The notes under the pieces are model-generated. The model ran no database searches, had not been told where the DNA came from, and worked only from the letters and a program-made list of their open reading frames with translations. Below are positions 1,284 to 55,783 of a stretch of 64,000 nt of DNA, piece by piece. This DNA comes from Hormiphora californensis (Eukaryota > Animalia > Ctenophora). The position numbers and the translations under genes were made by a program. Where the stretch lies: the NCBI GenBank assembly GCA_020137815.1, contig CM035350.1, positions 8,804,001 through 8,868,000 of the forward strand, given 5' to 3'. The first letter of the stretch is position 1. The number at the start of each line of letters is the position of its first letter.

Positions 1284-4200
1284 TTACAGGGTCTGCAGGA
1301 GCTCAGGATCAGTTTCATTGCACACAGTGAGGTTGTAGCCTGGTATTCTCTCTTGAGTCTTCCTGATGGCCTCTTTAGCAAGGGGGTGTCCATCCCAGGC
1401 CCTCCTGTTGACACCATTGCTAACGTCCCAGTCCAACATTGACTGGGCCTTCTCTCCTGACTCCTCACTTCCATCAAGCAGCATTCCAAACCCTCCATTC
1501 ATCACCTGGAGAGGGAAATAGTTTAAAGGGGGTTTCTTTCTTTGTCCTAATAGACAACACTTTACCTCACCTCACCCACCCTACACCCCGTTACAACTCA
1601 CCTCACCCCACCCTACACCCCGTTACAACTCACCTCACCCCACCCTACACCCCGTTACAACTCACCTCACCCCACCCTACACCCCGTTACAACTCACCTC
1701 ACCCCACCCTACACCCCGTTACAACTCACCTCACCCCACCCGACACCTCCACCATTGTGAATGCTAACGTATGTAGCCCCTCTGAGGGCTCCACCAATAA
1801 CATTCTGCACCGCCATGTCCGCACACCACATCGAGCCATCTGTTATGTTGGATGTCTCCCTGAAGGGTGAGTCCGTGCCGCTCACGTCGTGGTGATCCCG
1901 AGACAGCACCTATAGGTTAAAGTTTGTGGTGAGTCAATTGACAAAGCCTTGTTCGGCACAAATGTAAAGGAGGGTTAGAGCATAATGAGCCTGACACTGT
2001 GTTCCGTGTGGAGTATATTTTGTACTTACGATTGGTGCTGAAATATGCCCTGAAGCGATGGCCTTGTTGAATGCCAGGGCTATACGAGCTCTCCCGGCTT
2101 GGTTGCTATACAAGATACGGGCCTGTGATCCCACTACCATCTGGTTCTTACCTGCCTCCTCGATCTACATAAAGAGAGCACAGTGCAGGTTATTGACAAT
2201 CATTAAATCTGGTACTACATATCTACCGGTGCGAAATATAATACTATCTGACAGCGCCAACCTAATCTAATAATAATCAGAATAATCATTACCCATCGGA
2301 GGTTATCATTTAGATTTCCAGTTTCCTCAGGAGAGGGATTTTCCGAAAGTTGTTCTCTAATGACTTCGGCTGCTATTTTATCTGACTTCTCAAGATCTAG
2401 TGGATCACCTGAAGAAATTGTGTGATATGACCGTAGTAGATAGATATCCTTTTTTCCATGTCCATATCTCATTTCCAACTTCAAAAAGGACCGTGTTCAA
2501 GATTGAACTTGAGCCCCCTAAAACTGCCATAATTGTACCCACCACTTGTGCACACCCAACGGAATGGCCCAAATCCAAGAGAGAAGACGTCTCCCAGAGT
2601 TAGCTGAATGTAGGTTGGGTAGATAAAAGTACCGTCTTCAAACACCACTTCAGCACCAGCTCGACGTGCCTGCAGCGGAGAAGGGTATATATATGTTTTA
2701 TAAGTCCCTACTACCCTGCTCTTGTTTTGTCCAACAAACACATAAAAACTGTTATCCCCATCATACTGAAGAACAGCCAAGAGATACATTATTTGTACCC
2801 ACTACCCTGATATTACTATACCTCAAGAAGGAAGGCGTTTCCATAGTCCCAGAAATAAGTTCCTGATTCACACATGTAGTTGACTGCTGCCACATGCCGC
2901 CTCAAAGACTCCTGTACTAGCTCCTTGAACCTGGTCGGGTCGTCTATCATCATCTTGTTGCTTTCCTCGTAGGACAACCCAACGGGATAGTAGCCTCCAT
3001 TATATGGGTTGTGGAGGGAAGTCTGATCACTCCCCAACTCGACCAGGTTCTCTCCTGTCTTGCAATAATGTTTCTTGAATGCCTCCCAGAGATCAACCAC
3101 GTTACCATGGTACCTGGTAAAATGGAATTCAGGTAGTTACCATGGTACCTGGTAAAATGGAATTCTGGTAGAAACGTTACCATGGTATAGTACCTGGTAA
3201 CATGGAATTCAGGTAGAAACGTTACCATGGTACCTGGTAACATGGAATTCAGGTAGAAACGTTACCATGGTACCTGGAATTCAGGTCAAATGTTTGAAAA
3301 ACACGGGATCCCAATACAACACCTCGACAAGGAACAATCAATTGTAGGTTGGGTAAATACACAACAAACAGTTACCCGATGCTAAGTACGGCTTTATTGG
3401 ACCGTGCCTCAATCACTGCTTCTATACACTCCTTGACAGTCCCACATGCCTTTTGGATCCACCCCTGGCGATGACGCTTATCCAGAGCTTCCTTTGATAC
3501 CTGGGGTTATTTGATGGTAGATTCGGGTCTGAGTTAACAAGCGAGAACAATACAAGGGTATTCTTTTCAGTTAGACTGACTAAACTGACAAGCAGTAGAC
3601 TGACTAAACTGACAAGTTAAAATATCAGTTATTTCATTTGTACCTCTGCAATTACTCCAATCATTCCAGCGATCACAACAGCTTTCCCCTGTGCTCCACT
3701 CATGCCACCCAGGCCAGCAGTCAAATACACTTTCCCAGCCATACTGCCCTCTCCTAGATACTTCCTGCTTGCATTCATGACAGTGATGGTAGTGCCATGA
3801 ACTATACCCTGGGGACCAATGTAACAGTAGCTACCCGCTGTCATCTGCCCGTACATGGTACACCCCAGTGCAAAGAGCCTGTCATAGGTTGCCTTGTCGC
3901 TGTAGTTAGGGATTACCATTCCGTTAGTTAACACTACCCTGGGAGCACCAGGATGGGAGGGAAACAGACCTGAGTATGAATGTTGGAATCTATTAACATG
4001 GATATTTGATAAAGATTCTACCAGACTCTTCTGACTCGTTCGTCACGTTGCATTTCGTTTCACTTTTGCTTGTCTCAGACACCAAAAAGGGCTATTCTCA
4101 TCAATAAAATGCAACTCAAATCTGTCTCTAGTTCTCATTTCCATCACACATGACCTCCCAGTTACCACTGAACTGTCTCTCGAGCCTTGCCTGGTCTCAT

Positions 4201-7200
4201 TACTAAATTACAGCTGCATTATTGTCCAATATTAGCTCTTCCCCTCACTAAAATGCAACTTAAATCCGCCTCAAATACCAATATTTGAGAACATATGATC
4301 TCTCAGTCACCAGCGAGCAGTCTCCCCGGCAACGCACAGTCCAATAGTTAGTTTAGGGCAGCAATTTTGGCTAAAATCGACCAAAACTTTAGAATTTCGC
4401 ATTTAATTAAATTTGGGAAACTTTGTACTTTGCCATTGCGTGTTTGATAAAGGAGCACTAACAAGTCACATAGCAGAATTCTATTCATTACTCGTTCGTC
4501 ACGTTGCATTTCGTTTCACTTTTGCTTGTCTCAGACACCAAAAAGGGCTATTCTCATCAATAAAATGCAACTCAAATCTGTCTCTAGTTCTCATTTCCAT
4601 CACACATGACCTCCCAGTTACCACTGAACTGTCTCTCGAGCCTTGCCTGGTCTCATTACTAAATTACAGCTGCATTATTGTCCAATATTAGCTCTTCCCC
4701 TCACTAAAATGCAACTTAAATCCGCCTCAAATACCAATATTTGAGAACATATGATCTCTCAGTCACCAGCGAGCAGTCTCCCCGGCAACGCACAGTCCAA
4801 TAGTTAGTTTAGGGCAGCAATTTTGGCTAAAATCGACCAAAACTTTAGAATTTCGCATTTAATTAAATTTGGGAAACTTTGTACTTTGCCATTGCGTGTT
4901 TGATAAAGGAGCACTAACAAGTCACATAGCAGAATTCTATTCATTACTCGTTCGTCACGTTGCATTTCGTTTCACTTTTGCTTGTCTCAGACACCAAAAA
5001 GGGCTATTCTCATCAATAAAATGCAACTCAAATCTGTCTCTAGTTCTCATTTCCATCACACATGACCTCCCAGTTACCACTGAACTGTCTCTCGAGCCTT
5101 GCCTGGTCTCATTACTAAATTACAGCTGCATTATTGTCCAATATTAGCTCTTCCCCTCACTAAAATGCAACTTAAATCCGCCTCAAATACCAATATTTGA
5201 GAACATATGATCTCTCAGTCACCAGCGAGCAGTCTCCCCGGCAACGCACAGTCCAATAGTTAGTTTAGGGCAGCAATTTTGGCTAAAATCGACCAAAACT
5301 TTAGAATTTCGCATTTAATTAAATTTGGGAAACTTTGTACTTTGCCATTGCGTGTTTGATAAAGGAGCACTAACAAGTCACATAGCAGAATTCTATTCAT
5401 TACTCGTTCGTCACGTTGCATTTCGTTTCACTTTTGCTTGTCTCAGACACCAAAAAGGGCTATTCTCATCAATAAAATGCAACTCAAATCTGTCTCTAGT
5501 TCTCATTTCCATCACACATGACCTCCCAGTTACCACTGAACTGTCTCTCGAGCCTTGCCTGGTCTCATTACTAAATTACAGCTGCATTATTGTCCAATAT
5601 TAGCTCTTCCCCTCACTAAAATGCAACTTAAATCCGCCTCAAATACCAATATTTGAGAACATATGATCTCTCAGTCACCAGCGAGCAGTCTCCCCGGCAA
5701 CGCACAGTCCAATAGTTAGTTTAGGGCAGCAATTTTGGCTAAAATCGACCAAAACTTTAGAATTTCGCATTTAATTAAATTTGGGAAACTTTGTACTTTG
5801 CCATTGCGTGTTTGATAAAGGAGCACTAACAAGTCACATAGCAGAATTCTATTCATTACTCGTTCGTCACGTTGCATTTCGTTTCACTTTTGCTTGTCTC
5901 AGACACCAAAAAGGGCTATTCTCATCAATAAAATGCAACTCAAATCTGTCTCTAGTTCTCATTTCCATCACACATGACCTCCCAGTTACCACTGAACTGT
6001 CTCTCGAGCCTTGCCTGGTCTCATTACTAAATTACAGCTGCATTATTGTCCAATATTAGCTCTTCCCCTCACTAAAATGCAACTTAAATCCGCCTCAAAT
6101 ACCAATATTTGAGAACATATGATCTCTCAGTCACCAGCGAGCAGTCTCCCCGGCAACGCACAGTCCAATAGTTAGTTTAGGGCAGCAATTTTGGCTAAAA
6201 TCGACCAAAACTTTAGAATTTCGCATTTAATTAAATTTGGGAAACTTTGTACTTTGCCATTGCGTGTTTGATAAAGGAGCACTAACAAGTCACATAGCAG
6301 AATTCTATTCATTACTCGTTCGTCACGTTGCATTTCGTTTCACTTTTGCTTGTCTCAGACACCAAAAAGGGCTATTCTCATCAATAAAATGCAACTCAAA
6401 TCTGTCTCTAGTTCTCATTTCCATCACACATGACCTCCCAGTTACCACTGAACTGTCTCTCGAGCCTTGCCTGGTCTCATTACTAAATTACAGCTGCATT
6501 ATTGTCCAATATTAGCTCTTCCCCTCACTAAAATGCAACTTAAATCCGCCTCAAATACCAATATTTGAGAACATATGATCTCTCAGTCACCAGCGAGCAG
6601 TCTCCCCGGCAACGCACAGTCCAATACTTAGTTTAGGGCAGCAATTTTGGCTAAAATCGACCAAAACTTTAGAATTTCGCATTTAATTAAATTTGGGAAA
6701 CTTTGTACTTTGCCATTGCGTGTTTGATAAAGGAGCACTAACAAGTCACATAGCAGAATTCTATTCATTACTCGTTCGTCACGTTGCATTTCGTTTCACT
6801 TTTGCTTGTCTCAGACACCAAAAAGGGCTATTCTCATCAATAAAATGCAACTCAAATCTGTCTCTAGTTCTCATTTCCATCACACATGACCTCCCAGTTA
6901 CCACTGAACTGTCTCTCGAGCCTTGCCTGGTCTCATTACTAAATTACAGCTGCATTATTGTCCAATATTAGCTCTTCCCCTCACTAAAATGCAACTTAAA
7001 TCCGCCTCAAATACCAATATTTGAGAACATATGATCTCTCAGTCACCAGCGAGCAGTCTCCCCGGCAACGCACAGTCCAATAGTTAGTTTAGGGCAGCAA
7101 TTTTGGCTAAAATCGACCAAAACTTTAGAATTTCGCATTTAATTAAATTTGGGAAACTTTGTACTTTGCCATTGCGTGTTTGATAAAGGAGCACTAACAA

Positions 7201-10200
7201 GTCACATAGCAGAATTCTATTCATTACTCGTTCGTCACGTTGCATTTCGTTTCACTTTTGCTTGTCTCAGACACCAAAAAGGGCTATTCTCATCAATAAA
7301 ATGCAACTCAAATCTGTCTCTAGTTCTCATTTCCATCACACATGACCTCCCAGTTACCACTGAACTGTCTCTCGAGCCTTGCCTGGTCTCATTACTAAAT
7401 TACAGCTGCATTATTGTCCAATATTAGCTCTTCCCCTCACTAAAATGCAACTTAAATCCGCCTCAAATACCAATATTTGAGAACATATGATCTCTCAGTC
7501 ACCAGCGAGCAGTCTCCCCGGCAACGCACAGTCCAATAGTTAGTTTAGGGCAGCAATTTTGGCTAAAATCGACCAAAACTTTAGAATTTCGCATTTAATT
7601 AAATTTGGGAAACTTTGTACTTTGCCATTGCGTGTTTGATAAAGGAGCACTAACAAGTCACATAGCAGAATTCTATTCATTACTCGTTCGTCACGTTGCA
7701 TTTCGTTTCACTTTTGCTTGTCTCAGACACCAAAAAGGGCTATTCTCATCAATAAAATGCAACTCAAATCTGTCTCTAGTTCTCATTTCCATCACACATG
7801 ACCTCCCAGTTACCACTGAACTGTCTCTCGAGCCTTGCCTGGTCTCATTACTAAATTACAGCTGCATTATTGTCCAATATTAGCTCTTCCCCTCACTAAA
7901 ATGCAACTTAAATCCGCCTCAAATACCAATATTTGAGAACATATGATCTCTCAGTCACCAGCGAGCAGTCTCCCCGGCAACGCACAGTCCAATAGTTAGT
8001 TTAGGGCAGCAATTTTGGCTAAAATCGACCAAAACTTTAGAATTTCGCATTTAATTAAATTTGGGAAACTTTGTACTTTGCCATTGCGTGTTTGATAAAG
8101 GAGCACTAACAAGTCACATAGCAGAATTCTATTCATTACTCGTTCGTCACGTTGCATTTCGTTTCACTTTTGCTTGTCTCAGACACCAAAAAGGGCTATT
8201 CTCATCAATAAAATGCAACTCAAATCTGTCTCTAGTTCTCATTTCCATCACACATGACCTCCCAGTTACCACTGAACTGTCTCTCGAGCCTTGCCTGGTC
8301 TCATTACTAAATTACAGCTGCATTATTGTCCAATATTAGCTCTTCCCCTCACTAAAATGCAACTTAAATCCGCCTCAAATACCAATATTTGAGAACATAT
8401 GATCTCTCAGTCACCAGCGAGCAGTCTCCCCGGCAACGCACAGTCCAATAGTTAGTTTAGGGCAGCAATTTTGGCTAAAATCGACCAAAACTTTAGAATT
8501 TCGCATTTAATTAAATTTGGGAAACTTTGTACTTTGCCATTGCGTGTTTGATAAAGGAGCACTAACAAGTCACATAGCAGAATTCTATTCATTACTCGTT
8601 CGTCACGTTGCATTTCGTTTCACTTTTGCTTGTCTCAGACACCAAAAAGGGCTATTCTCATCAATAAAATGCAACTCAAATCTGTCTCTAGTTCTCATTT
8701 CCATCACACATGACCTCCCAGTTACCACTGAACTGTCTCTCGAGCCTTGCCTGGTCTCATTACTAAATTACAGCTGCATTATTGTCCAATATTAGCTCTT
8801 CCCCTCACTAAAATGCAACTTAAATCCGCCTCAAATACCAATATTTGAGAACATATGATCTCTCAGTCACCAGCGAGCAGTCTCCCCGGCAACGCACAGT
8901 CCAATAGTTAGTTTAGGGCAGCAATTTTGGCTAAAATCGACCAAAACTTTAGAATTTCGCATTTAATTAAATTTGGGAAACTTTGTACTTTGCCATTGCG
9001 TGTTTGATAAAGGAGCACTAACAAGTCACATAGCAGAATTCTATTCATTACTCGTTCGTCACGTTGCATTTCGTTTCACTTTTGCTTGTCTCAGACACCA
9101 AAAAGGGCTATTCTCATCAATAAAATGCAACTCAAATCTGTCTCTAGTTCTCATTTCCATCACACATGACCTCCCAGTTACCACTGAACTGTCTCTCGAG
9201 CCTTGCCTGGTCTCATTACTAAATTACAGCTGCATTATTGTCCAATATTAGCTCTTCCCCTCACTAAAATGCAACTTAAATCCGCCTCAAATACCAATAT
9301 TTGAGAACATATGATCTCTCAGTCACCAGCGAGCAGTCTCCCCGGCAACGCACAGTCCAATAGTTAGTTTAGGGCAGCAATTTTGGCTAAAATCGACCAA
9401 AACTTTAGAATTTCGCATTTAATTAAATTTGGGAAACTTTGTACTTTGCCATTGCGTGTTTGATAAAGGAGCACTAACAAGTCACATAGCAGAATTCTAT
9501 TCATTACTCGTTCGTCACGTTGCATTTCGTTTCACTTTTGCTTGTCTCAGACACCAAAAAGGGCTATTCTCATCAATAAAATGCAACTCAAATCTGTCTC
9601 TAGTTCTCATTTCCATCACACATGACCTCCCAGTTACCACTGAACTGTCTCTCGAGCCTTGCCTGGTCTCATTACTAAATTACAGCTGCATTATTGTCCA
9701 ATATTAGCTCTTCCCCTCACTAAAATGCAACTTAAATCCGCCTCAAATACCAATATTTGAGAACATATGATCTCTCAGTCACCAGCGAGCAGTCTCCCCG
9801 GCAACGCACAGTCCAATAGTTAGTTTAGGGCAGCAATTTTGGCTAAAATCGACCAAAACTTTAGAATTTCGCATTTAATTAAATTTGGGAAACTTTGTAC
9901 TTTGCCATTGCGTGTTTGATAAAGGAGCACTAACAAGTCACATAGCAGAATTCTATTCATTACTCGTTCGTCACGTTGCATTTCGTTTCACTTTTGCTTG
10001 TCTCAGACACCAAAAAGGGCTATTCTCATCAATAAAATGCAACTCAAATCTGTCTCTAGTTCTCATTTCCATCACACATGACCTCCCAGTTACCACTGAA
10101 CTGTCTCTCGAGCCTTGCCTGGTCTCATTACTAAATTACAGCTGCATTATTGTCCAATATTAGCTCTTCCCCTCACTAAAATGCAACTTAAATCCGCCTC

Positions 10201-13200
10201 AAATACCAATATTTGAGAACATATGATCTCTCAGTCACCAGCGAGCAGTCTCCCCGGCAACGCACAGTCCAATAGTTAGTTTAGGGCAGCAATTTTGGCT
10301 AAAATCGACCAAAACTTTAGAATTTCGCATTTAATTAAATTTGGGAAACTTTGTACTTTGCCATTGCGTGTTTGATAAAGGAGCACTAACAAGTCACATA
10401 GCAGAATTCTATTCATTACTCGTTCGTCACGTTGCATTTCGTTTCACTTTTGCTTGTCTCAGACACCAAAAAGGGCTATTCTCATCAATAAAATGCAACT
10501 CAAATCTGTCTCTAGTTCTCATTTCCATCACACATGACCTCCCAGTTACCACTGAACTGTCTCTCGAGCCTTGCCTGGTCTCATTACTAAATTACAGCTG
10601 CATTATTGTCCAATATTAGCTCTTCCCCTCACTAAAATGCAACTTAAATCCGCCTCAAATACCAATATTTGAGAACATATGATCTCTCAGTCACCAGCGA
10701 GCAGTCTCCCCGGCAACGCACAGTCCAATAGTTAGTTTAGGGCAGCAATTTTGGCTAAAATCGACCAAAACTTTAGAATTTCGCATTTAATTAAATTTGG
10801 GAAACTTTGTACTTTGCCATTGCGTGTTTGATAAAGGAGCACTAACAAGTCACATAGCAGAATTCTATTCATTACTCGTTCGTCACGTTGCATTTCGTTT
10901 CACTTTTGCTTGTCTCAGACACCAAAAAGGGCTATTCTCATCAATAAAATGCAACTCAAATCTGTCTCTAGTTCTCATTTCCATCACACATGACCTCCCA
11001 GTTACCACTGAACTGTCTCTCGAGCCTTGCCTGGTCTCATTACTAAATTACAGCTGCATTATTGTCCAATATTAGCTCTTCCCCTCACTAAAATGCAACT
11101 TAAATCCGCCTCAAATACCAATATTTGAGAACATATGATCTCTCAGTCACCAGCGAGCAGTCTCCCCGGCAACGCACAGTCCAATAGTTAGTTTAGGGCA
11201 GCAATTTTGGCTAAAATCGACCAAAACTTTAGAATTTCGCATTTAATTAAATTTGGGAAACTTTGTACTTTGCCATTGCGTGTTTGATAAAGGAGCACTA
11301 ACAAGTCACATAGCAGAATTCTATTCATTACTCGTTCGTCACGTTGCATTTCGTTTCACTTTTGCTTGTCTCAGACACCAAAAAGGGCTATTCTCATCAA
11401 TAAAATGCAACTCAAATCTGTCTCTAGTTCTCATTTCCATCACACATGACCTCCCAGTTACCACTGAACTGTCTCTCGAGCCTTGCCTGGTCTCATTACT
11501 AAATTACAGCTGCATTATTGTCCAATATTAGCTCTTCCCCTCACTAAAATGCAACTTAAATCCGCCTCAAATACCAATATTTGAGAACATATGATCTCTC
11601 AGTCACCAGCGAGCAGTCTCCCCGGCAACGCACAGTCCAATAGTTAGTTTAGGGCAGCAATTTTGGCCTAAAATCGACCAAAACTTTAGGAATTTCGCAT
11701 TTAATTAAATTTGGGAAACTTTGTACTTTGCCATTGCGTGTTTGATAAAGGAGCACTAACAAGTCACAGAGCAGAATTCTACTTCATTACTCGTTCGTCA
11801 CGTTGCATTTCGTTTCACTTTTGCTTGTCTCAGACACCAAAAAGGGCTATTCTCATCAATAAAATGCAACTCAAATCTGTCTCTAGTTCTCATTTCCATC
11901 ACACATGACCTCCCAGTTACCACTGAACTGTCTCTCGAGCCTTGCCTGGTCTCATTACTAAATTACAGCTGCATTATTGTCCAATATTACCCCCCGCCCC
12001 CCCCACCCACCCTCCCCCACCCACCTCTCCCAATATAGCGGACATTGCTAAATACCACACTACAGAGACAATCCTTGTGTTCTGGTGCACTAAGTCGCTT
12101 ATCGCGTGTAACAATTAACAAATGTTCTTATCTGTCCCGTCCTCATTGTCTTCTAGAACATTATACATTCTAGTGGTGTCACAATTTGTCTTACCCCGTA
12201 TTTGTGTTTGATCGTATTCGTTTATCTCTATCTCAACTGAAAATGGACAGTGGACACACCACTCATCTCATCATCAACAACATCACGGTACCAATCATGC
12301 ATCAAAATGCTGTAAGTTCAATCTGTCCGTATTGTCTGTCCATCTATTGTGTACACATTTTAAATGATATTATGTAGCATTGGGTTTGAAAAGTGGATGT
12401 GGCGATTGAGAGATTTGATTTATATTTTTATTTACTGTTTTTTAGCTAGCTATAGCGCCACCAACAGACCCACTCGCAAAGGCAAAACGTTACCTCGATC
12501 CAGACCAACTCCAAGTTACACGCAGAGGCAAAATGTTACCTTGTTCCAAACCAAACTAAACTCAAGACACCCTCAAAGGCAAAACGTTACCTTGTTCCAG
12601 AACAAACTGGGCCCAAGACACTCTCAAAGGCAAAATGTTACCTTGTTCCAGACTAAACCAAACTCAGGACTCTCTCAAAGGCAAAACGTTACCTTGTTCC
12701 AGAACAATCCCAACTCGACAGACTTTATGACTGATGCCATAGGTTCCCCCCATTTCATCAAAATCGAGAAAGGGGGGAGCTTAGCGCCATAGTTACCCAT
12801 ACCCGGGTGGTATGAGGTTTGCTCAGCGTGTGGCTAAGTGACCCAAAAAAAAAAAAAAAAAAAAAAAAAAAACCAGACTCTTCTTCTTCGAGAGTGATTG
12901 AAGGAAGGATACCGGGTCGGTCGCGGTGTACAAACTGTAAACAAAATGGGAAACTTTGCCAGTTGTTGGTATATGATTTAGCAATTCAATAAATTCGTAC
13001 CAGCAGGATGACCCGACATCATGGAGAGAGTCTGTTCCTCTGTCATAGTGCTGAGATAGTGTAGAGTGAGCCTGAACTGTCCCCAGTTGCTAAACACCTG
13101 AAAGAAATTGTGTTATTACATAAATTGTCAGACTTTATCTGATCTCTCCAGACATCTTTAGGATGGCTATCGATAATGATAATGGTATATTAAATGCATA

Positions 13201-13818
13201 TTTTACATTTTATATGAGATACTACGATGACTATCGCGATCGATAATCGGAGGTCTGATGGTCAGAGAAAATGAAAGCTCAAGGGAATTTGGGTTCTGAC
13301 AGGGTTCACATGTTATGGTTGTTGCTGAAATTGTGTACTTTGCGCACACTGCAAGGGCATGGTGCTGCGCGTTACATATTTTACAGAGACGGACTGCGGG
13401 ACTGATTGGTATGGGACCGGAAACTGAGTTTTCTGGATAACTCTGTTTATACAGGTCTTGTGTGACACGTCACCCAGGCCACAATAAACCGAGACAGGAA
13501 TTGTGTGTGTAACAGACGGATAATGTTTCGATATTTAGGGGTTTGGTACTCAACCCAGAGTCCAAAAAAGGAAGATATCTCCCTCCCCTCACCTGCCCAT
13601 TTCCTCCATAAGTAACGAGCTCCTCAGGAAACTGTGCAACTCGTCTGTCCAAGTTGTTCATGATCATGAGTATAACCGCGGCTCCAGCGGTGGTGACACA
13701 ATGGGGAGTGTACTCAGAGATTGGGTAGGCTTTCATTAGCGAGGTGTCCGGCATAAACCTGGGAATGAGTAGTTTGTGAGAGAGAGGGAGATAGAGATAG
13801 AGATAGAGAGAGATAGAT

Positions 13819-13896
<78 letters not shown>

Positions 13897-15877
13897 AGAG
13901 AGAGAGAGAATATGAAATTGCAAAATGAGACGACAGTTGTACAGTTGTTAGTGAGCATGTTCATATTTGTTTTGTTACTTTTAGCTCTCTCAGCAGCTAT
14001 CGATAACTCAGCATCAGTACGGCGATACATGACAACGAAGGTACGGTTTGTTATTTTCTAACCCTCCCTTTTTACGCCCGAAACACAGTCCAGCCAGGCA
14101 AGGTATGGTCCAACCATGTAATAAATCATCATCATCATCATTACTTAATTGCCCTCTCCGAACCCTCGCCCAACCCCCTATTCCTACACCCCTGCCCTCT
14201 CCCTCGCCCCTCTCCATTTTCCTACACCCCTACCCTCTCCGATCCCCCCCCCCCCCCATATTCCTACACCCCTGCCCTCTCCCTCGCCCCCTCCCCCAGC
14301 CCACTATTCCTACACCCCTGCCCTCCCCCATCCCCTATTCCTACACCCCTGCCCTCTCCGAACCCTCGCCCCCTCGGCCCTCCCCCTACTCCTACAACCC
14401 TGCCCTCTCCTTCGCCCCCTCTCAATATTCGTACACCCCTGTCCTTTCTGAATCCGTTGCAGATAGGAACAGTCTTACACCAATGGGTCTACTCAGATTC
14501 TAAACGTATGTTTCTGAGGCTGTACCGTGTGGGATGCATGAAGATACAGTATATGGCAAAGTCAACAGGGATCGGAGATATATTATCGTCCGTTTCTTAG
14601 GTGTTACATGCACGCCTGTTATCTGATGTCCTGATAGGTCTCAATTGCCTCACTCCAGGTACTGTGTGGTAGTAGAGATGGATGGATCAGCTACAAAGTA
14701 AACAACCTTCCCTCTCACACTAACATGGACAATAGGGAGCTGGAGAGTGCAATTCAGGATTCATTCAATGCCTGGACAAACGCCAGTTCGGACTGTTTTA
14801 GGTCGGTAAATACATTATACAATTACAGCCTGCATGTACTGATCAATTAAAAATCTAGATATTTTAGAACTCATATATCCTGTTTACAGGTTTCGACAAG
14901 AGACGGATATCAGAAAAGCGAACATCGTTATTTCCTTCCAGAGTGGCAAACACCGGTGTGTGGTCCGTCAATGTCCCTCAAACCCTGACCTAGCTCTGCC
15001 AGTTCTGGGTCACACATTTCGACCTGCTGACGGTTCAGAGATACACATGAATGACAAAGTGACATGGATAAAAGATTGTGATAGATATGGGGGAATTGTG
15101 CTTAGAAGTGTTCTAACACATGAAATAGGGCACGCACTGGGATTTATGTAGGTGTATATCACGCTCAAATTATTATACTACGACTGGCCTATATGTTTGT
15201 GGTCTGTGCAGCTGTTTGTCTTATCATGGTTGGTGATGACATCCCCTATTACTCAGCCTGCTTCGCAGGCTTCGTTTAGCTGCGCTGCACACGGCTAGTG
15301 TAGGGGTGGCTGCGTCACCAATTATCATGGTTAACTGTTATTCTTTTCAAACATCCTAAGTTTTTACTCCATTGTATTTAGTTCTAAGGATTTAATATAC
15401 CATTACTTTTCAGGCATGTAGTGAGTCCTAAAACGATAATGAAGTCTGGTTATCAGTGTAAGGACGTGGATATCGGACCATTGGATTATGGATTCATGAG
15501 AGAATTGCGAGAGAGATGCAAAGCACAGAATAAACTTTACCTGTACATATAAATGTGCCCAAACGTATCCAATTCTTTAGCAAACTCTGTTCCTAGTTCA
15601 GCGTGGCAGGATTTAGGAAAATACCGTAGGGCATTTCGAATTGCCAACAACCTGAGATAACGGCTTATGTTATTTTTTTGTCCTTGAAGTGTAAATTAGC
15701 GTTTTAGTTATTTGTATCTGTACATGTTTGCAAAACAATGTATCTTATATTTTCTTACCTTTCCGTTCCGTTTAATCCGGTATTTCTGTTAGGTGCATGT
15801 GCAATATCAGGGCATCTCTCTCGTGCTGGAGGCAGAGGGTCAACTTGTAAACCAGAACATAGCTCTTTGAGATCCAT
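1284..15877 (-). CDS. UROC1: Urocanate hydratase, 12 coding exons
   Basis: Exons 15877-15759, 15651-15541, 13758-13593, 13097-13001, 3969-3644, 3500-3376, 3113-2822, 2669-2543, 2408-2293, 2164-2030, 1909-1730, 1505-1284, all GT-AG. Motifs NALRYFP, ELVTYGGNGQVFSNW, YGQMTAGSYCYIGPQGIVHGT, GLGGMSGAQ, SDQTS, GFGPFRWVCTSG, RDHHDVSGTDSPFRETSNI, HNGGGVGWG. Confidence 0.97.
1567..1740. repeat. 32-bp minisatellite (about 5 copies) spanning a UROC1 donor site
   Basis: Unit ctcacctcaccccaccctacaccccgttacaa; on the minus strand each copy contains GGTGAG/GTGAGT. Confidence 0.9.
3101..3285. repeat. About 40-bp minisatellite spanning a UROC1 acceptor site
   Basis: Repeated gttaccatggtacctggtaa..tggaattcaggtag; the minus strand reads CCAG/GTACCATGGTAAC. 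Confidence 0.85.
4034..11989. repeat. 456-bp tandem array, about 17.4 near-identical copies
   Basis: Exact 456-bp periodicity (identical ORFs at 4413, 4869, ... 11253). One substitution seen at 6627; a few indels in the last unit. Confidence 0.99.
12478..12710. repeat. 51-bp diverged minisatellite (about 5 copies) in the 3' part of the insertion
   Basis: Recurrent aaaggcaaaa(c/t)gttaccttgttcca at 51-bp spacing. Confidence 0.85.
13779..13908. repeat. (GA)n microsatellite
   Basis: Direct reading. Confidence 0.95.
14148..14445. repeat. C-rich degenerate minisatellite
   Basis: Repeated ctattcctacacccctgccctctcc. Confidence 0.8.
14483..15552 (+). CDS. Minimal matrix metalloproteinase (M10 catalytic domain only), nested antisense in UROC1 intron 2; N-terminus uncertain
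   Basis: Exons about 14504-14587 (VPCGMHED switch-like, RDRR/YII furin-like site), 14659-14801 (ISYKVNN..AIQDSFNAWTNAS), 14890-15147, 15414-15552. Splicing assembles HEIGHALGFMH and the Met-turn TIMKSGY. In-frame TAA at 14501-14503 follows ATG 14483. Confidence 0.85.
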
Positions 15878-17505
15878 TCTAAAACTTAAAGAATCAAGTG
15901 GAATTTTTACTACAGTCGGATCACGATTTACCGACTTATCCCGATGATTGTAGGGGTAAGCCGTAAGGGTAGTTAATATCGGATGGATATGTAAATGTAA
16001 TATAATCACTTTATAGTGTAAAATAATGGAGCAGGCACCAACAGCCTACGCTTGGCATACTCGCTCACTTCAAAAAGTGAATATGAATATGAATATGAAC
16101 TTCACAATTTATATCAAGTCAATATAAGAAAATATATGACTCTCCCGCTCTTACACTATACGTATAAAATATAGTTAAAAATTAAGTACATTAATATACG
16201 CTTCTAGGCCGAGGCTAATAGCACAACAGCAGTTACCTAAAGCGGGACAAACACACACAGACGAACCAATGAGACGGGTAACAATGAGCTGAGAGCTAAA
16301 CGGACAGATAGATTTAACCAGGTTTAATAAATTACTAAAATCGAAAAGAAAAAGGCGAATAAGTTAGTTAAAAATACGGTAGTTACAGAACACCACCACA
16401 CATACACACACACTCACACACACACACACACACACCCACACACACACAGAACTCACACTCAAACTCACACTCACACTCACATTTATAACCCAACACCCAA
16501 AAAATAAAGACATACACAAAACACAAATAAGTTAAGTTAAATAAGTTAATTAAAAATGGTCATCTCACAAGAGAACACAAAGGTGCACACACAAACGGAC
16601 ACAGCATACCTAGACTACTTGGAAACAGTAAATCATGTTCAGCACACATCGTTTACATAAAAATAGTAAGATTGTCATTGATAAACACGTACTTATCATC
16701 ACTTTCGAAGTGTTCATTTACAGTCTGCAGGAATAACTGCACTTTCAGCCGTTTTCGTAACGGTACACGTTTCTTGTAACTGTTTTCTCCTGGCCCATAC
16801 TCGGCCAATTCTCGACTACCCTCAGACTCTACTCCACATCTCAGTTGCCAAGATCCTACTAACCCATACACCCACCACACACAAACGAACAAGAATACGC
16901 ACTCAAAAAACCCTAGCTCTGAACAATATGTGGAGGACGTCTCTCCTAACTCGGGATGGTGGTGAAATAGGACGGATGGTGGAGGATAGGAGTGATGGTG
17001 AAGGATGGATGGTGGAGGATAGGAAGGATGGTGGGGGATTGGTTAATATTTTCAAGTGATTTCAGGCTATATCAAGGATACCTCGAACCTCATATATGGA
17101 GGGATTCATAGGCCATAAAGCTTGGTGGCAGCGAGATGTGAGCCACAGAACACGGGAAAGAAGATGTAGAGAGGTGCAAAACTGAAAGAGAAAACCACGG
17201 GAAAACGGCCATCTTGAAAAGGTTCGGGCTTCGGCTGGCTGACGTTTTCATTCTTTCTTTTCAAAACGGCAGCTCGCGCGCGGAATATTTTTGCGCGTTA
17301 TCATGCGCGGCGTAAACTGACTGCTGACACAGAAGTGTCTCTGAGTGGCTGTCCTCGCGCCTTCCTGCTGCGAGAACCGTTACACCGAAAAGCGGGAAAT
17401 TTGAGAACTGACCAGTAAAACATTGATCATGCACGACGCATTCAAAAACTTACATTAGTTTGGTCAAATTTAGAATTGTACTATACATGTATTCACAGTA
17501 AAAAC

Positions 17506-31491
<13,986 letters not shown>

Positions 31492-35200: not shown

Positions 35201-38200
35201 CCCCTCTCGTAATCACTGCTGGTATCATCATCATCATCATCATCATCATCACCATCATCTTTCTTTTCACATTTGATGTACCCAGAAGCGCAGTTGGCCT
35301 CTTCCTTCTTTTCATATCCCTCAGTCTTCAACCAACAGCTGTGCCACCACTCAGTACTCTTCAGATCCTCATTATCGACCCAACTGTAAGCGACGCAGGT
35401 ATCTGTTTCAGAGCACCTCGCCTCGCATTCTGTCCTGGTGTCTTGGGGTGAATTCCTTCCATCCACTAGGTCGTTGCCATGGTAACAGTATGAATCGTCA
35501 GGAACATAGGAACATATCTCCCCGTCGTTACCATCGTTACCATCATCATCGTTACCATCATCGTTACCATCATCTTTCTTTTCGCATTTGATGTACCCAG
35601 AAGCGCAGTTGGCCTCTTCCTTCTTTTCATATCCCTCAGTCTTCAACCAACAACTGTGCCACCACTCAGTACTCTTCAGATCCTCGTTGTCGACCCAACT
35701 GTAAGCGACGCAGGTATCTGTTTCAGAGCACCTCGCCTCACATTCTGTCCTGGTGTCTTGCGGTGCATTCCTTCCATCGACTAGATCATTGCCATGGTAA
35801 CAGTATGAATCGTCAGGAACATAGGAACATATCTCCCCGTCGCTACCATCATCATCATCATCATCATCATCATCTTCATCATTACCATCGTTACCATCAC
35901 TTCCCTCGCCGTTACAGGAGAGATCAGCGATGTATCCGGAGTTAACATTAGTATCATCCTTCTCCTCATATCCACTCTCCTTCAGCCAACAGCTCTGGTA
36001 CCACTTTCCACTTCCAGCGGCGTGGACCCAGGAATATGCGACACACTTGGAGTTTTCCAGACACTTCGCTGCACAATCTTCCTCACTCTCCAAAAGTAAC
36101 TCCAATCCATTCACCAAATCTGCCCCATGGAAGGCTTTGTTGGCGGACTTTGTGAAATCACAAGTTGTCTCTCGCTGGGATGCGGCCTCCTCGGCCTCCG
36201 TGACCTGGATCGAGGAACAGGTATTCCAGATTTGGGGAGTTTGATCGTTATCCCATCTCCATGACAACACATACTCACCCAAAGCAAGATCCCTCGGCAC
36301 GACCACCTTGTCCACGACTGCCCATTTGAAGACATTGCTGATTCCCTTGTAGGTGATACTGAAGCCCTTTAGACCGGGGTAGGGAGGTTCGAACTGGGTA
36401 CCCGCTGGACAGGAGTTATCATCATTTAAGAAACCACCATGATCATACTCACAGGCAGGAATGGGGTTAACCCTCCAGGTAGATCCAGCAGGGACGGTAC
36501 CCACGTTGGTGTCTTTAGCAGCTATCGGCTTCCAATCTGCCTCATTCTCAGTCCAGGCAGCCCACTGGACAGACCCGTAGAACTTTAGGGGTGTCTCCTG
36601 GAAGCATTCCTCGGTCACCCCAGCCCTTCCGGCAGAACCAACCTTGCAAAGTCGATACTGGTAACCGCCACCGTGGTTTGCAGACAGAGTGTACGCGGTA
36701 TTCTGGACACTACCCCGGGGCCAGTTAGTTGTGGGTACATCCCTGTCGGAGTAATACTTTTCAGCATAAGCCCCGTAGGAGTGACCTCCCCCGGTGCAGT
36801 CTTTGTTGACTTTGTTCCCCACGGGGCATCCCTCAGGGTTCCCGCCAGACACCCCACACGGACTGTACACTTTAGCGGTTCCAGGAGCCCCCCACGGGTT
36901 CCTCTGGGACACTTGGTGAGTTGCAAAGGTCCTCATTTCACTCCTCAGAGTGATATCGCCCGGGATGGTGGTGTAGTTGTTGTACCACTGCAATACACAG
37001 CTGTTCTCAACACCCTCGGAAGGGTCATTCCGGCCGCACCCGATAAATCCACCGTGGTTTAGGTACATGTTGTGGAATTTGAGGCCGACGGAGGAGAAAT
37101 CCTGGAAAACTGGCGGGAAAATCATGTTGCCATGGCCAGTTACCATGGGAACCAGCAGGAGGACAAAACATAACATGATGTCGGGAGAAATAAAACGTCG
37201 TGCTACTGCTATAACAGATGTTGTATTTATAAAGGTGTAGAACAATGGCTCGACGGTAGATCTATATTCTTAGAATAGCTTGGTGGTAGTAGTGGTAGAC
37301 GCCCCTGCTCCTATTCAAAAGGGGGGGGGGGGTGGTCTTTGTTGCTCGCCAGTCACATGAGGAAAGGTGGGGTCTGTGACAATTGTGGGCCCTCAATTGA
37401 GGGACCCACGTCCCTAGAATAAAACCACCGCCCACCATGCCTGCTTTTATGTACAGACTTTGAATAGGAGTCCCATTCAAAAGGCCAAGTAGCAGCTAGT
37501 AGTATATTTCCATTGTTGAACCACCACGTACGGCAACATTGTTCAATAATGGAAATATAGCTTAGTGACGGTGGGGGACATTAATTCAAGTTGAGCTGGA
37601 GAATTACGTTATATCGGTTGAGACGTTGAGTATTGGGACACAGTTCTTTATATAATCCGAGTTGGAAATCAACAAGTTCCGAGCTCTTCCGTGCAGATCC
37701 ACAAGACCACAGCTCTATAATATTACAAACCTTTGTACCAACCAGGTATTGCTCAATCACTGTTTCCTCTTTGGAGATCTTTGGGAAACAAAAAGAAAGT
37801 GTACCAGGAAAAATTATAGATGTCGTACCACGTTTTCCTTTTTGATAGGACGAAACGCGTTCTATTTCAGCTGCAGCACATCGTACATGTATGTATCCGG
37901 GTCCCCATACCTCTATTGTCCAATTCAGCTGCTCTCGGCCCATAGCTTCCCATTGACTCTGTAATTCTTCCCCTATTTCCCCTCTTTTCTTCCTCTCTTT
38001 CACCTACAGATACATCTCGAAAAGAACGTCTGTCACGTGTAAAACTTCCAGATGAGGAATTGAAAAGTGTAGCTGCTAGATTCTGTTGGGTTCTCTTTCT
38101 TCTATCGTCCTGCGCTGTCTCTCTCTCATGTTTTCTCGCACGCTACGTTTAATTCGGGATGGGGGCGAGTGAGAAGAGAGGGGACACTGTACCCAATAGA

Positions 38201-41200
38201 TTCTGCTGCTAAGAACATATAAGAACAGCTGATCCTAGCCGCTGTTAGGAACATGCACTCATGCACTTCCTTCTCGTCTGGAAAGGCCCTAAAATCTCTA
38301 TACATAAACACAACCCCTTGTCATACCACGCACCTGTAATATGCATACGCTGTACCGTTTGGAGAGGGAAGTCGTTTGGGACTCAAATAACCTCTAAATC
38401 CCTTTCATCTCAGGCGTTGTATTGGCTTCATGGATATGATAGGAAAATGTTCGATGATCTCTCCGGAAGGTATTTATGGTGCCGTGGTTGTTTTTTAACC
38501 CCAATATCCCCCCCAGTAGGCAGTATCCCATCATTTGTTAACCCTGCCGGCCGCCCCAAATGACCTGTCAATTGTTAATCCCGCCCCCAATATCCTATCA
38601 TTAACATTTCCCAGGTATGTAGAGACAGCCCAGACCACCTACCAGACTGTCCTACAAGAGTACTTCAACGACAAAACTTCAGCAGTCACCAAGAAATCTG
38701 CCGACAAGCTGCTGTCTAAATTCAGTTCCAATCCCAAGAAATCTGACCTGGCGATTAGCCAAAAGATGATGACCTCCAACAACCTGATGATCGCATCCCA
38801 AGTCTCCATGGCATCCAATACCTCCCTGGACTCCATCACGTCTGGCAGGTCGGATCAGGAGGTGTTGGCTGTGGGCCAGGGTGGCAACCAGTTCGAGGTT
38901 CTTGTCAGGGAGGCCCTCGACTTTACTGAGATGTCCATGGAAAAGGAGGAACAGTTTGTTGAAAACTTCTTCCGGGAGACCAAGACACCCAGAGAGAGAC
39001 GAGATCTGGTGGAGATGATATTGTGTCGGTTTGGATCTCAATGGGACGACTTTGTCCATACCAGCTGCAAGTTTGATATCTACTACTCATTGCCAATCTT
39101 CCTGAGCTTGCTAGATAAACTTGACAATTTATCCAGGGAGAGCTTCGCATTTGCAGTTTTTAGGAAAAACCTGGATGTCGCTAATGATTATTTCAACAAA
39201 ATGTACAAGGTATAATTATGGCTGTAAACTTCAACATTTGTTAGCAACCTATTTTAGTAATATAATTTAAATTCTTTGAAGTTTTGTACAAACTTGATGG
39301 TGATCAAAAAATCCTATTTTTTTAGCAACATAAAACCAAGATACTGGAGGTGAATAAGAAGTTAATTCGTGGAACTCTTGCAAGTGTTTTACATTTTACC
39401 CAATTTCTTCTGTTTTCTGAATCTCTCCAGAGAACTACAAAACGCAACTCAATAGGTGAGGTGTTTAGATACACATTATATATGTCGAGTCTCGCAGTCT
39501 GTGTATACTGTATTAACAAGAAATGATGTATGTGTGTGTCACCATGTGTAATGTGATATGTAATGATAATGTAACTATGAATGATTGCATGTTGCTACAG
39601 ATCAGTGTTACATTCAACTCTCCAACGCTGTCACGGAGTCCATTGATTCCTTTGCTGGCCAACAAACCAAGGTACATGCAATCAATTGATAAAATGCTGC
39701 TGCTTTAATCAATCAATTGATAAAATGCTGCTGCTTTAATCAATCAATTGATAAAATGCTGCTGCTGCTGGAATGTTGTCAATGTGTTATACCAGCTGTG
39801 TTAAATTAAACAGAGTTTTAGTATGTGTACCATCTTCATGTTCCTATCTTCCCCTAGCTGCCTGTTGAGGTCGTTATTGTGGAGAATTACCACTTTATCT
39901 ACACGTTCCTACTGAAAAACAAGATAGAGAGTCTCGACAAATACCGATCGGTGAGTGAGGAAGGTTCCCCAATCAGGGCTCTATCCTAGTAGCAGGAATC
40001 AGGGCTCTATCCTAGCACCTCGAATTAAGGCTCTATCCTAGCACCTCGAATTAAGGCTCTATCCTAGTAGCAGGAATTAGGGCTCTATCCTAGTAGCAGG
40101 AATCAGGGCTCTATCCTAGTAGCAGGAATCAGGGCTCTATCCTAGCACCTCGAATTAAGGCTCTATCCTAGTAGCAGGAATCAGGGCTCTATCCTAGTAG
40201 CAGGAATCAGGGCTCTATCCTAACACCTCGAATCAGGGCTCTATCCTAGCACCTCGAATTAAGGCTCTATCCTAGTAGCAGGAATTAGGGCTCTATCCTA
40301 GTAGCAGGAATCAGGGCTCTATCCTAGTAGCAGGAATCAGGGCTCTATCCTAGCACCTCGAATTAAGGCTCTATCCTAGTAGCAGGAATCAGGGCTCTAT
40401 CCTAGTAGCAGGAATCAGGGCTCTATCCTAGCACCTCAAATCAGGGCTCTATCCTAGTAGCAGGAATCAGGGCTCTATCCTAGTAGCAGGAATCAGGGCT
40501 CTATCCTAGCACCTCGAATCAGGGCTCTATCCTAGCACCTCGAATCAGGGCTCTATCCTGGTAGCAGGAATTAGGGATCTATCCTAGTAGCAGGAATCAG
40601 GGCTCTATCCTAGTAGCAGGAATCAGGGCTCTATCCTAGTAGCAGGAATCAGGGCTCTATCCTAGTAGCAGGAATCAGGGCTCTATCCTAGTAGCAGGAA
40701 TCAGGGCTCTATCCTAGCACCTCGAATCAGGGCTCTATCCTAGCACCTCGAATCAGGGCTCTATCCTAGTAGCAGGAATCAGGGCTCTATCCTAGTAGCA
40801 GGAATCAGGGCTCTATCCTAGCACCTCGAATCAGGGCTCTATCCTAGCACCTCGAATCAGGGCTCTATCCTGGTAGCAGGAATTAGGGATCTATCCTAGC
40901 ACCTCGAATCAGGGCTCTATCCTAGCACCTCGAATCAGGGCTCTATCCTAGTAGCAGGAATCAGGGCTCTATCCTAGTAGCAGGAATCAGGGCTCTATCC
41001 TAGTAGCAGGAATCAGGGCTCTATCCTAGTAGCAGGAATCAGGGCTCTATCCTAGCACCTCGAATCAGGGCTCTATTATTTTCAGCCAGTTTTCACAACT
41101 CCCTTGAATACAAGAACAAATTAATAAATCTTTGAAATTTGAACCCTTTCTAGTTTTGCCACAAGAGATATAAAGACAGTCTAGAGGAGTATGTTAAAGC

Positions 41201-41978: not shown

Positions 41979-42010
41979 AATTATTGATCAAAGAACTATT
42001 GATACAGTTA

Positions 42011-42404
42011 GGGTCACCACACACCAAAGTTAAAATTAAAATTAAAATTTGACGTTTTTGGTCATAACTCTGCCATTTCTTGGCAAAATTGCTTCATTTT
42101 GGGCTTGTTGGAAAGAGGGCATCGAGCCCGTTCTGAACAGCCCAAGAAACTTAAAATCGGCGCAAAGTGCGCGGCGTTAAGGCACATAATGCGTGCGTTA
42201 AAATTTTAAAATTTTAACACACACATTTTGCACTGTAACGCCGCACACTTTGCGCCGATTTCAAGTTTCTTGGGCTGTTCAGAACGGGCTCGATGCCCTC
42301 TTTCCAACAAGCCCAAAATGAAGCAATTTTGCCAAGAAATGGCAGAGTTATGACCAAAAACGTCAAATTTTAATTTTAATTTTAACTTTGGTGTGTGGTG
42401 ACCC
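42011..42404. mobile_element. About 394-bp near-perfect palindrome (foldback MITE, TA flanks)
   Basis: gggtcaccacacaccaaag...ctttggtgtgtggtgaccc, with arms pairing almost to the centre. Confidence 0.9.
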
Positions 42405-42668
42405 TAAACTGTTTGTGAAAATCAAAACATCGGGATTAATATTTGATAATAATCTGCTGCCTTATTATTTATTCTGAGTTTATGTGTATTTGTATTGTAA
42501 CTGGATTTGTACTTTTTCTTTTTTCTTCTTCCAAATTGAAACCTTTTCTCGTGTTCCCCCCACCTCCAATTCAATGCCAAAAACGGTTAATTCACAGTTG
42601 ATAACTTAACTTAGGAAACTCAGACACAAACTACAATATACAAAACTTTCAGAGTCTATGATCTCTCT

Positions 42669-43943
42669 TTATACATTGTGTCCTAGACGTTTCCTAGCAT
42701 CGGGGCTCCTATTTTCCTCATTTATCAGATTCGTCTGCCACTCATATGTCGCTGGACCATCCTCCTCGGGTCGTACCCAGTTATCAAAGTTGCTTATACA
42801 ATCAAACCCGTCAGTGAGCCAAGGAAGGAGCCAAGTTGGGTTGGTCCAAAGTAGGTAGCCCTGGAGGAGAACGGTTAGAGTAGGAGTTAGGACAATCCTA
42901 GGAAACTGTGATCTCTAATTACACAGAAACAATCCGTCGGCCGTACCTGGAAAAAGGCAAATCCCATCATGATCGAACGGAAAAGAGGCCACCGGTTGGG
43001 TCGTCTGCTCTCGTAGAAGGGAGGGAAGTGTTTTGGCCAGTTCTCGGGATGCTCCATGTCAATCTGGTGGAGAGGGGAGGGGGTGCGTTATGTGGAAGAG
43101 GAGGGGTGGAGAGGGGAGGGGATTTGGGAAGGGGTGCGTTATGGGAGAGGGGAGGGGATTTGGGAGGGGGTGCGTTATGGGAGAGAGGAGGGGATTTGGG
43201 AGAGGGTGCGTTATGGGAGAGGGGAGGGAATTTGGGAGGGGGTGCGTTATGGGAGAGAGGAGGGGATTTGGGAGGGGGTGCGTTATGGGAGAGAGGGGAG
43301 GGGATTTGGGAGGGGGTGCGTTATGGGAGAGAGGAGGGGATTTGGGAAGGGGTGCGTTATGGGAGAGAGGAGGGGATTTAAGAGGGGGTGCGTTATGGGA
43401 GAGAGGAGGGGATTTGGGAGGGGGTGCATTATGTGGAAGAGGAGGGGTGGCCGGTGGGGTGAGAGGAAGGGGATAAGAGAGGGGGTGCGTTATGGGAGAG
43501 AAGAGGGGATAAGAGAGGGGGTGCGTTATGGGAGAGGGGAGGGGATTTGGGAGGGGGTGCGTTATGGGAGAGTGGAGGGAATTTGGGAGAGAGGAGGGGA
43601 TTTGGGAGAGAGGAGGGAATTTGGGAGGGGGTGCGTTATGGGAGAGAGGAGGGAATTTGGGAGGGGGTGCGTTGTGGGAGAGAGGAGGGAATTTGGGAAG
43701 GGGTGCGTGAAGGTGGTTGGTGTTATGAGTTACTCTCCACACAATCTCTCCAACTCTAACCTTGAGGTGGGGAGGGTACCGGCCATCATTTTCAATCAGC
43801 AGCTCCTCGTGTGGTACAGGTGGTTTCTTGAATCCTGGGATTTTCCTTAGTTTCCGGTACTCGAAGGTGTTACCGGTGACATTTCGAACAAGGACTAGGT
43901 TGACAGTGTGCTTTGCACACACCGCACTTCGCCCCAACAACAT
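42669..43943 (-). CDS. 163-aa single-TM protein with presequence-like N-terminus; putative NDUFB8-like complex I subunit
   Basis: Exons 43943-43761, 43063-42947, 42860-42669 splice in frame (GT-AG): basic N-terminus, KPPVPHEELLIENDGRYPPHLKID, then hydrophobic LFRSIMMGFAFFQGYLLW. The gene is well supported; its identity is tentative. Confidence 0.6.
43075..43707. repeat. G-rich about 36-bp minisatellite in an intron
   Basis: gggagagaggaggggatttgggagggggtgcgttat repeats. Confidence 0.9.
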
Positions 43944-54980: not shown

Positions 54981-55783
54981 AGGAAGGGTTAGAACATAAC
55001 AACCCCGAAGGACAAAACAGTAGCTCGGACAAAGTCTTGACGAGTGGCGGTACTCTGTTAACATATGAAGTATGAACGTTTGTAGACTGGCGCGTTATGA
55101 AGTTGGCTGTTCCCAGCGCGAGCTGGGGACAGCCAACTGGAGTTTAATCGCCCGGCAGGGCGATTAAACTGGTTTAAATCCCGACTCCGATCCCGAGGCG
55201 CCAGCCGAGGGTGAGGGGGAGGTGATTTAAACCTATAACGCGATAGGCTAACAAACGTTCATATTTTATGAAACCCGATAGTAATTACACACAAATAAGA
55301 GACACAACACAAGGTGAAACACACTAGAACTGCTGGTAAATAGTCAACAGATACCCTGAAAATGTGTGTAGACTTAGTGTCTACTGTTCCTAACATGTTT
55401 GAGAAAGAGAGAGAAAGATTAGGGGCAATACACACTGTCAGAGGTAATGAACAGTAAAAGAGACAATGAGAGAGAGAAATGAATGGAATGTGATTCTTTT
55501 CACTCCTTATGAGAGAGATAACATTGAAACGTGTTGCAGACATGTTTCCCCTTTCTTTTGTTGACAGAACTGTGTGTTTACACACATTTTCAATACTTAG
55601 AATTTTACACGCATGTTATTCAAATGAAGAGAAACGCGTGAAAAAGGACACTGGCCTGATAAATCGCGAGCAGGGTGTTAAATCCCCCAGCTAGCAGTTA
55701 TCATGAGCGCGCAAAATCTTCAAACGACTGATAAATCAACTATCGGGTTTCATAATCATTTAATATTTTAGGAGGGTTATGAG

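Follow-up and report, generated by a model that had tools for sequence, protein, structure and literature searches.

How satellite arrays come to be scattered through euchromatin is an open question, and the usual answers are DNA transposons or extrachromosomal circles. Satellites derived from the untranslated regions (UTRs) of retroelements and arrays carried inside DNA transposons have been reviewed, and none of the cases covered in the accessible part of that review is a poly(A) retroposon that carries an array of several kb (PMC9659126). Among described retroelements, the closest are the SVA family of hominoids, whose RNAs are given as 0.7-4 kb (PMC3287187), and mouse L1, in which the cut point of the first 5' monomer marks the transcription start site (PMC6454616). 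Here we describe an insertion of 8,839 bp in an intron of a urocanase gene of the ctenophore Hormiphora californensis. It lies in a 64-kb stretch of DNA (assembly GCA_020137815.1, contig CM035350.1, positions 8,804,001 to 8,868,000; hereafter "the window") and consists of a tandem array of 456-bp units (4034-11989), a shorter 3' part and a poly(A) run, all between exact target-site duplications (TSDs).

We consider it very probable that this insert is a copy of an abundant repeat family that was placed by target-primed reverse transcription (TPRT). We give about an even chance to the fuller reading, in which the insert is a recent copy of a non-autonomous retroposon of composite build, and a partner long interspersed nuclear element (LINE) supplied the reverse transcriptase (RT) that put it in place from a single long capped RNA. 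No ctenophore element of the same kind was found in the literature, and Repbase, Dfam or genome supplements may list the family. One ctenophore genome paper reports 13% tandem repeats, and the word "satellite" is absent from its main text (PMC8527503). R2 elements have been reported from Mnemiopsis (PMC5035012), which shows only that machinery of the type without long terminal repeats (non-LTR) exists in the phylum.

Boundaries of the insertion and its host intron

The insert (4033-12871) is flanked by a 13-bp direct repeat, ACCAGACTCTTCT, which occurs twice in the window, at 4020-4032 (left TSD) and 12872-12884 (right TSD) on the plus strand. The two copies match exactly and a script run on the window could extend the match in neither direction, in agreement with a preliminary description of this locus. 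A 13-bp match has a chance of ~1e-8 per site, and of the three A/T runs of at least 10 nucleotides in the window, the insert's A run alone has an upstream partner of at least 9 bp. This run, read from the sequence and from the A/T-run scan, comprises 27 uninterrupted nucleotides (12845-12871, plus strand) and adjoins the right TSD. The 28 As reported previously include the first A of the TSD, such that 27 belong to the insert. The motif TT/AAAA is the target of the L1 endonuclease; the site here reads TTCT/ACCA, and thus is not of the L1 type.

Removal in silico of the insert and one TSD yields a GT-AG intron of 179 bp in a urocanase gene on the minus strand, confirming the normal intron that had been described. 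Because this intron lies on the minus strand, the element is antisense to urocanase, with the left TSD 50 nt from the acceptor (3' end of the intron) and the right TSD 116 nt from the donor. Both splice sites are left intact by the insertion. The downstream exon (3644-3969, minus strand) is supported by Pfam matches to Urocanase_N and Urocanase and by homologues, and the upstream exon (13001-13097, minus strand) joins the next exon in frame; GT-AG boundaries were read from the sequence for both. In a tree of 21 rows picked from ~130 fetched, the 113-amino-acid urocanase exon clusters with the Mnemiopsis and Bolinopsis urocanases and three other proteins (identity 79-82%) on a long branch, with a support of 88/96 that is under the tool's star threshold. 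Taken alone, this grouping makes the host likely to be a ctenophore outside these two genera; searches with Nop14 and rotatin gave no further help in placing it.

The 3' part of the insert past the array measures 855 bp, all on the plus strand. It comprises a C-rich tract that links the array to the body (11990-12031), a non-coding modular body (12032-12470), a segment of variable-number tandem repeats (VNTR) with 4.7 copies of a 51-bp unit (12471-12707, by repeat scan), in keeping with the 51-bp minisatellite noted earlier, and a structured 3' tail (12735-12844). Three stem-loops are predicted in the tail (z = -3.65; 1 of 200 shuffles equally stable). The short hairpin previously observed near the tail is present, as one of these three, and the strongest predicted stem lies elsewhere, at ~12740-12784. 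No AATAAA precedes the A run. A stable fold without this signal is what one would expect of an RNA end recognised by a LINE protein, and the tail may be the recognition site for a partner LINE. A second low-energy window (12374-12473, z = -3.6), one of two such among 21 plus-strand windows, rests on a T-rich stretch. Separately, a 40-bp minisatellite of 4.5 copies at 3099-3277, in the next urocanase intron, has the core AAACGTTACC in common with the 51-bp VNTR, which may be chance.

At the 5' edge, the array does not start directly at the left TSD as had been stated, and instead begins one base later, at 4034, behind a single G at 4033 (plus strand). This G was read from the assembly and matches neither the unit nor the continuation of the target, each of which has T at this place. 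An extra 5' G was found on 3 full-length SVA insertions among 11 analysed and on ~33% of genomic SVAs, and has been attributed to the cap (PMC3287187, PMC6425141). By analogy with such SVA and L1 data, the G at 4033 is a candidate cap copy. A G that fits neither target nor unit is typically left where a cap has been reverse-transcribed, and the insert is therefore probably a full-length copy of a capped RNA. The G also favours a complete RNA polymerase II transcript that started inside a unit, as in mouse L1. Together, the TSD, the A tail without a nearby AATAAA, the folded tail and the extra 5' G provide good support for the earlier proposal of insertion by TPRT.

An abundant and modular repeat family

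Contigs of four sequencing runs (21 candidates; 25-50% of each run's records read) were compared with positions 11534-13400, with 12836-12881 masked. Runs X1 and X5 are two samples of organism A, X10 derives from organism B, and X7 is a seawater RNA run. The compared region is matched by 995 contigs in X1, 861 in X5 and 553 in X10, mostly 90-99% alike. Summed contig depth, which is not a copy number and comes from runs read in part, amounts in X1 to 12,000-168,000 for the unit, 59,000-133,000 for 12038-12163, 2,000-21,000 for 12164-12541 and 47,000-247,000 for the VNTR and tail, versus 100-470 for the flank. Unit, body and tail stand at 100-1000 times the flank depth in both samples of the first species (organism A) and in the second (organism B), and this contrast shows all three to be highly repeated. 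The ~850 bp of 3' sequence that had been called unique are therefore unique in the window and highly repeated in the species.

The order of array end, C-rich tract and body recurs, with variant C-rich joints, in three of the four runs (from 11993 to 12042 in X5, from 11995 to 12472 in X1 and from 11668 to 12082 in X10). The X10 joint leaves the unit at position 338, which in subunit register is at most 7 nt from position 201, where the window's array ends. This near-identical register suggests that the link between array and body is older than the split of the two species, or is shared between them. Among the 32 contig pieces listed, out of 2,438, not one bridges the window's exact 11989/11990 junction with 31 letters on each side. 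Variants of the body skip 168, 476 or 93 bases, and the block 12353-12478 is almost missing from X5 (depths of 16 and 3), which together show a modular family. Depth bins, deletion joints and loose ends likewise identify 12038-12163 and ~12227-12352 as abundant and 12353-12478 as rarer parts of the body, which has no Pfam or Rfam match. Loose ends in X5 and X10 lead from the body segment 12256-12355 into other sequences, and this segment therefore also appears as a module in other repeats.

One X1 contig (depth 104) spans 12882-13032 and carries 34 extra letters on the insert side, the length expected for a start inside the A run, which is not proof of the junction. The next urocanase exon has a depth of 392 in X1; this is compatible with other haplotypes at the site and likewise is not proof. 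One X5 contig continues from the tail into 606 other letters, from which a second TSD pair is not readable. In X7, a single 466-letter contig (depth 8) covers 12204-12666 with four differences, and the array has no cover. It counts neither for nor against transcription, since the run may hold DNA and its contigs show neither strand nor start.

Exact-pattern scans gave 0 and 0 matches in viral contigs, and 0 for the tail in metagenome contigs. Two matches to the VNTR motif in metagenome contigs (L001 6059-6085 and L002 9993-10020; 27-28 bp) were set aside as chance matches inside a bacterial protease frame, which was listed for L001 alone and which we take, from its translation, to be of Lon type.

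The preliminary description had noted neither an RT nor another credible open reading frame (ORF), and this was borne out: none of the 17 element reading frames scanned has a Pfam match above cut-off, and the longest (142 amino acids) runs across the VNTR. With no endonuclease or RT ORF, the insert itself is not an autonomous LINE. A search of the element for tRNAs found none, the unit has no B box, and there is no head derived from tRNA, 7SL or 5S RNA. These absences, together with T4 runs in every unit, make RNA polymerase III unlikely and set the element apart from short interspersed nuclear elements of that type. A search of the window with Rfam produced 0 matches at gathering score (8 and 4 sub-threshold matches), and thus gives no support to an array of spliced-leader or small-RNA genes, ctenophore leaders not having been compared. 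Helentrons and DINE elements are not known to carry a TSD or a poly(A) tail; this insert has both.

Three origins had been suggested earlier: a 5'-truncated LINE with a tandem-repeat 3' UTR, a large non-autonomous retroelement, or a rolling-circle copy of a circular RNA. The second fits best, because array and body are linked family-wide and the 5' G speaks for a capped transcript of full length. For the first, an autonomous LINE would hold the array in a very long 3' UTR, and the RT part, upstream in the parent, would not have been copied. Most LINE copies are 5'-truncated, as stated for L1Md (PMC6454616), tandem repeats in retroelement 3' UTRs, as in Ogre and HeT-A, are known satellite sources (PMC9659126), and the structured tail is LINE-like. 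However, the extra G favours a capped and complete RNA, a 3' UTR of at least 8.8 kb would imply a parent of at least 12 kb, and the deletion-rich modular body resembles a non-autonomous mosaic. We therefore judge a truncated LINE to be unlikely.

Origin of the tandem array

A repeat scan and script resolve the array (4034-11989, plus strand) into 17 full 456-bp units and a further 201 bp, each unit corresponding to about three diverged subunits of 144-168 bp. These 17.4 units make up 90% of the insert and are nearly identical, as was first described: 15 of the 17 full units are the same, a single substitution is present in each of units 6 and 17, and unit 17 additionally carries three 1-bp insertions. 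Subunits 1 and 2 are 65% identical over 152 columns (E 4e-15), and subunit 3 is 42-50% identical to the others. Joints from unit position 60 to 217 in X1 and from 52 to 205 in X10 represent copies without one subunit; judged from these contig sequences, the three-subunit composition is shuffled among copies. Each unit has two T4 runs and, on the sense strand, one AATAAA (18 motifs in the array).

The letter at 11938, common to all 17 units, is a minority variant in the sequencing runs (1,249 versus 27,645 in X1, 2,744 versus 8,726 in X5, and none versus 20,556 in X10). This finding indicates that one variant was recently amplified, in the parent or at this locus. If at this locus, a copy of ~1.5 kb (one unit with the 201-bp partial unit, body and tail) would have been inserted by TPRT, and the array would then have expanded by unequal sister exchange, by slippage, or by rolling-circle repair starting from the 201-bp direct repeat. 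Such growth in place would account for almost identical full units that all carry one minority variant, would leave both ends of the insert intact, and would require no 9-kb read-through past 18 AATAAA motifs; slippage has also been proposed for length changes of the SVA VNTR (PMC7353768). On the other hand, a perfect TSD and an uninterrupted A27 suggest a very young insertion, with little time for at least four doublings. We consider growth in place a real but rather improbable alternative, and regard a single-event transfer of the complete 8-kb array as likely.

It is also conceivable, at a distinctly low probability, that the assembly has introduced an error into a real element, either in the length of the array or at one junction. 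The three insertions in unit 17 are left out in most or all of the X1 contig depth at those places, and therefore are probably consensus errors. In addition, the exact array/body junction is unbridged among the listed contig pieces, and polishing can yield near-perfect unit identity. However, a misjoin could not easily place a 13-bp duplication at both ends and restore a normal intron, the link between array and body is found in three runs, and polishing with multi-mapped reads would tend to impose the majority variant, whereas the array retains minority letters.

Near-identical head-to-tail units would also result if a 456-nt circular RNA had been reverse-transcribed by the rolling-circle route, as for retrozymes, into a multimeric cDNA that was joined to a retroposon tail (PMC7761336). 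A ribozyme covariance-model scan, as proposed in the preliminary description, gave no Rfam ribozyme match, and the hammerhead core CUGANGA is missing on both strands. The unit folds no better than its shuffles (z = +0.85; 79 of 100 equally stable), whereas the monomers of animal retrozymes are ~150-300 bp and strongly self-paired (PMC7761336). Moreover, the insert closes with a non-repeated body and an A tail, priming at that tail would require a template switch, and the joint between array and body recurs in a second species. These data leave the rolling-circle origin unsupported and extremely improbable, and the insert is not classed as a retrozyme.

If the insert is a composite retroposon copied from one capped RNA, its formation can be outlined as follows. 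An earlier, recent amplification at the DNA level of one three-subunit variant would have built the array in the parent. RNA polymerase II would start inside a tandem unit, as in the monomer promoters of mouse L1, and since a start would be possible inside any upstream unit, the head would renew itself. The RNA would read through the array and then the body to the folded tail, where proteins of the partner LINE would bind. With the nicked intron as the priming site, reverse transcription would then copy this RNA up to the cap, which would leave the extra G.

Several observations weigh against this outline. At 8.8 kb the RNA would be well above the SVA range of 0.7-4 kb, and the AATAAA in every unit would, if used, cut a long polymerase II transcript short. 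A single base is thin evidence for a cap, as a parent variant, an end-joining base or an assembly error could explain the G. The YR step at the 5' edge does not amount to evidence for an initiator, since 107 of the 456 steps in each unit are of this kind, and that argument was set aside. The minority variant at 11938 is equally compatible with growth at one locus and with a long parent that is rare, and the near-absence of 12353-12478 from X5 means that the exact composite may be a small subfamily. Finally, no second complete or long copy, parent, partner LINE or empty allele was seen in the exact-pattern scans of viral and metagenome contigs.

A cap-like G on an 8-kb array that is bounded by a TSD and poly(A) would directly attest to an RNA route, and if the array moved as RNA, satellite-like arrays could spread through RNA. 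If the array instead grew after insertion, the locus would still be a datable record of the birth of a satellite from a retroposon head. Both species in which the family abounds belong to an early-branching animal lineage that has been little studied, and existing long-read data could settle the question. More speculatively, ctenophores might possess a class of giant non-coding retroposons whose higher-order satellite array serves as a promoter with a start in any unit. Borrowed LINE enzymes would copy these arrays from cap to poly(A), and satellite DNA would thereby colonise introns via RNA while evolving new higher-order units. We advance this broader view tentatively and think it somewhat more doubtful than not.

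The remainder of the window contains further repeats and genes. A dispersed repeat of 690 bp is present in two copies of opposite orientation (27775-28464 and 55065-55754), which are 97% identical, have sharp ends and hold a 118-amino-acid frame without a Pfam match. A spacer-free 400-bp palindrome (42008-42407), with 200-bp arms that are 96% complementary, resembles foldback elements or miniature inverted-repeat transposable elements, and further arrays occupy 39971-41076 (26 bp x 42.5) and 43108-43708 (36 bp x 16.9). Within an 867-amino-acid ORF, 35226-35881 is a coding 315-bp duplication of PAN domains. An intronless 345-amino-acid frame (20758-21795, plus strand), without a Pfam match and membrane-receptor-like by eye, sits between exons of a rotatin-like gene on the opposite strand, and a matrixin (M10) exon (14843-15151) lies near it on the same strand.

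Comparison with described elements

The insert combines features of TPRT products with those of several described repeat carriers. Like mobile elements of the Helentron/DINE and Tetris types, which are tabulated as spreading arrays based on ~150-bp repeats through euchromatin (PMC9659126), the family would disperse a tandem array. Those are DNA elements, whereas the element described here has a 13-bp TSD and poly(A). Animal non-LTR retrozymes similarly place near-identical tandem units between TSDs (PMC7761336), but the present element has no hammerhead, a longer and unstructured unit, and a non-repeated body with poly(A).

Tandem units at the 5' end are also a feature of mouse L1Md, a TPRT element with a variable number of ~200-bp monomers (PMC6454616). 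In both cases the first unit is cut at an internal point, which is read as a transcription start in L1Md and, by analogy, here. The element differs from L1Md in that neither ORF1 nor ORF2 follows the array, its units are 456 bp in 17 copies, and its promoter activity and a start shared among copies are putative.

The composite non-coding layout with VNTR, poly(A) and TSD is that of SVA/LAVA. Elements of that hominoid group are repeat-headed, carry an internal VNTR of ~50 bp and can bear an untemplated 5' G (PMC7353768, PMC3287187), as does the insert described here. They are also of polymerase II type and moved in trans by a LINE, which probably holds for the present element as well. However, its head consists of 456-bp higher-order units that make up an 8-kb array, with no hexamer head, no SINE-R homology and no SRP/Alu match in Rfam, so it works alike without being a member. 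It further differs in its structured tail, its target other than TT/AAAA, its ctenophore host and its size of 8.8 kb versus 0.7-4 kb, which is twice the largest SVA RNAs cited. If the reading of a single capped RNA is correct, the element would be a convergent case that unites the monomer promoter of mouse L1 with the layout of SVA.

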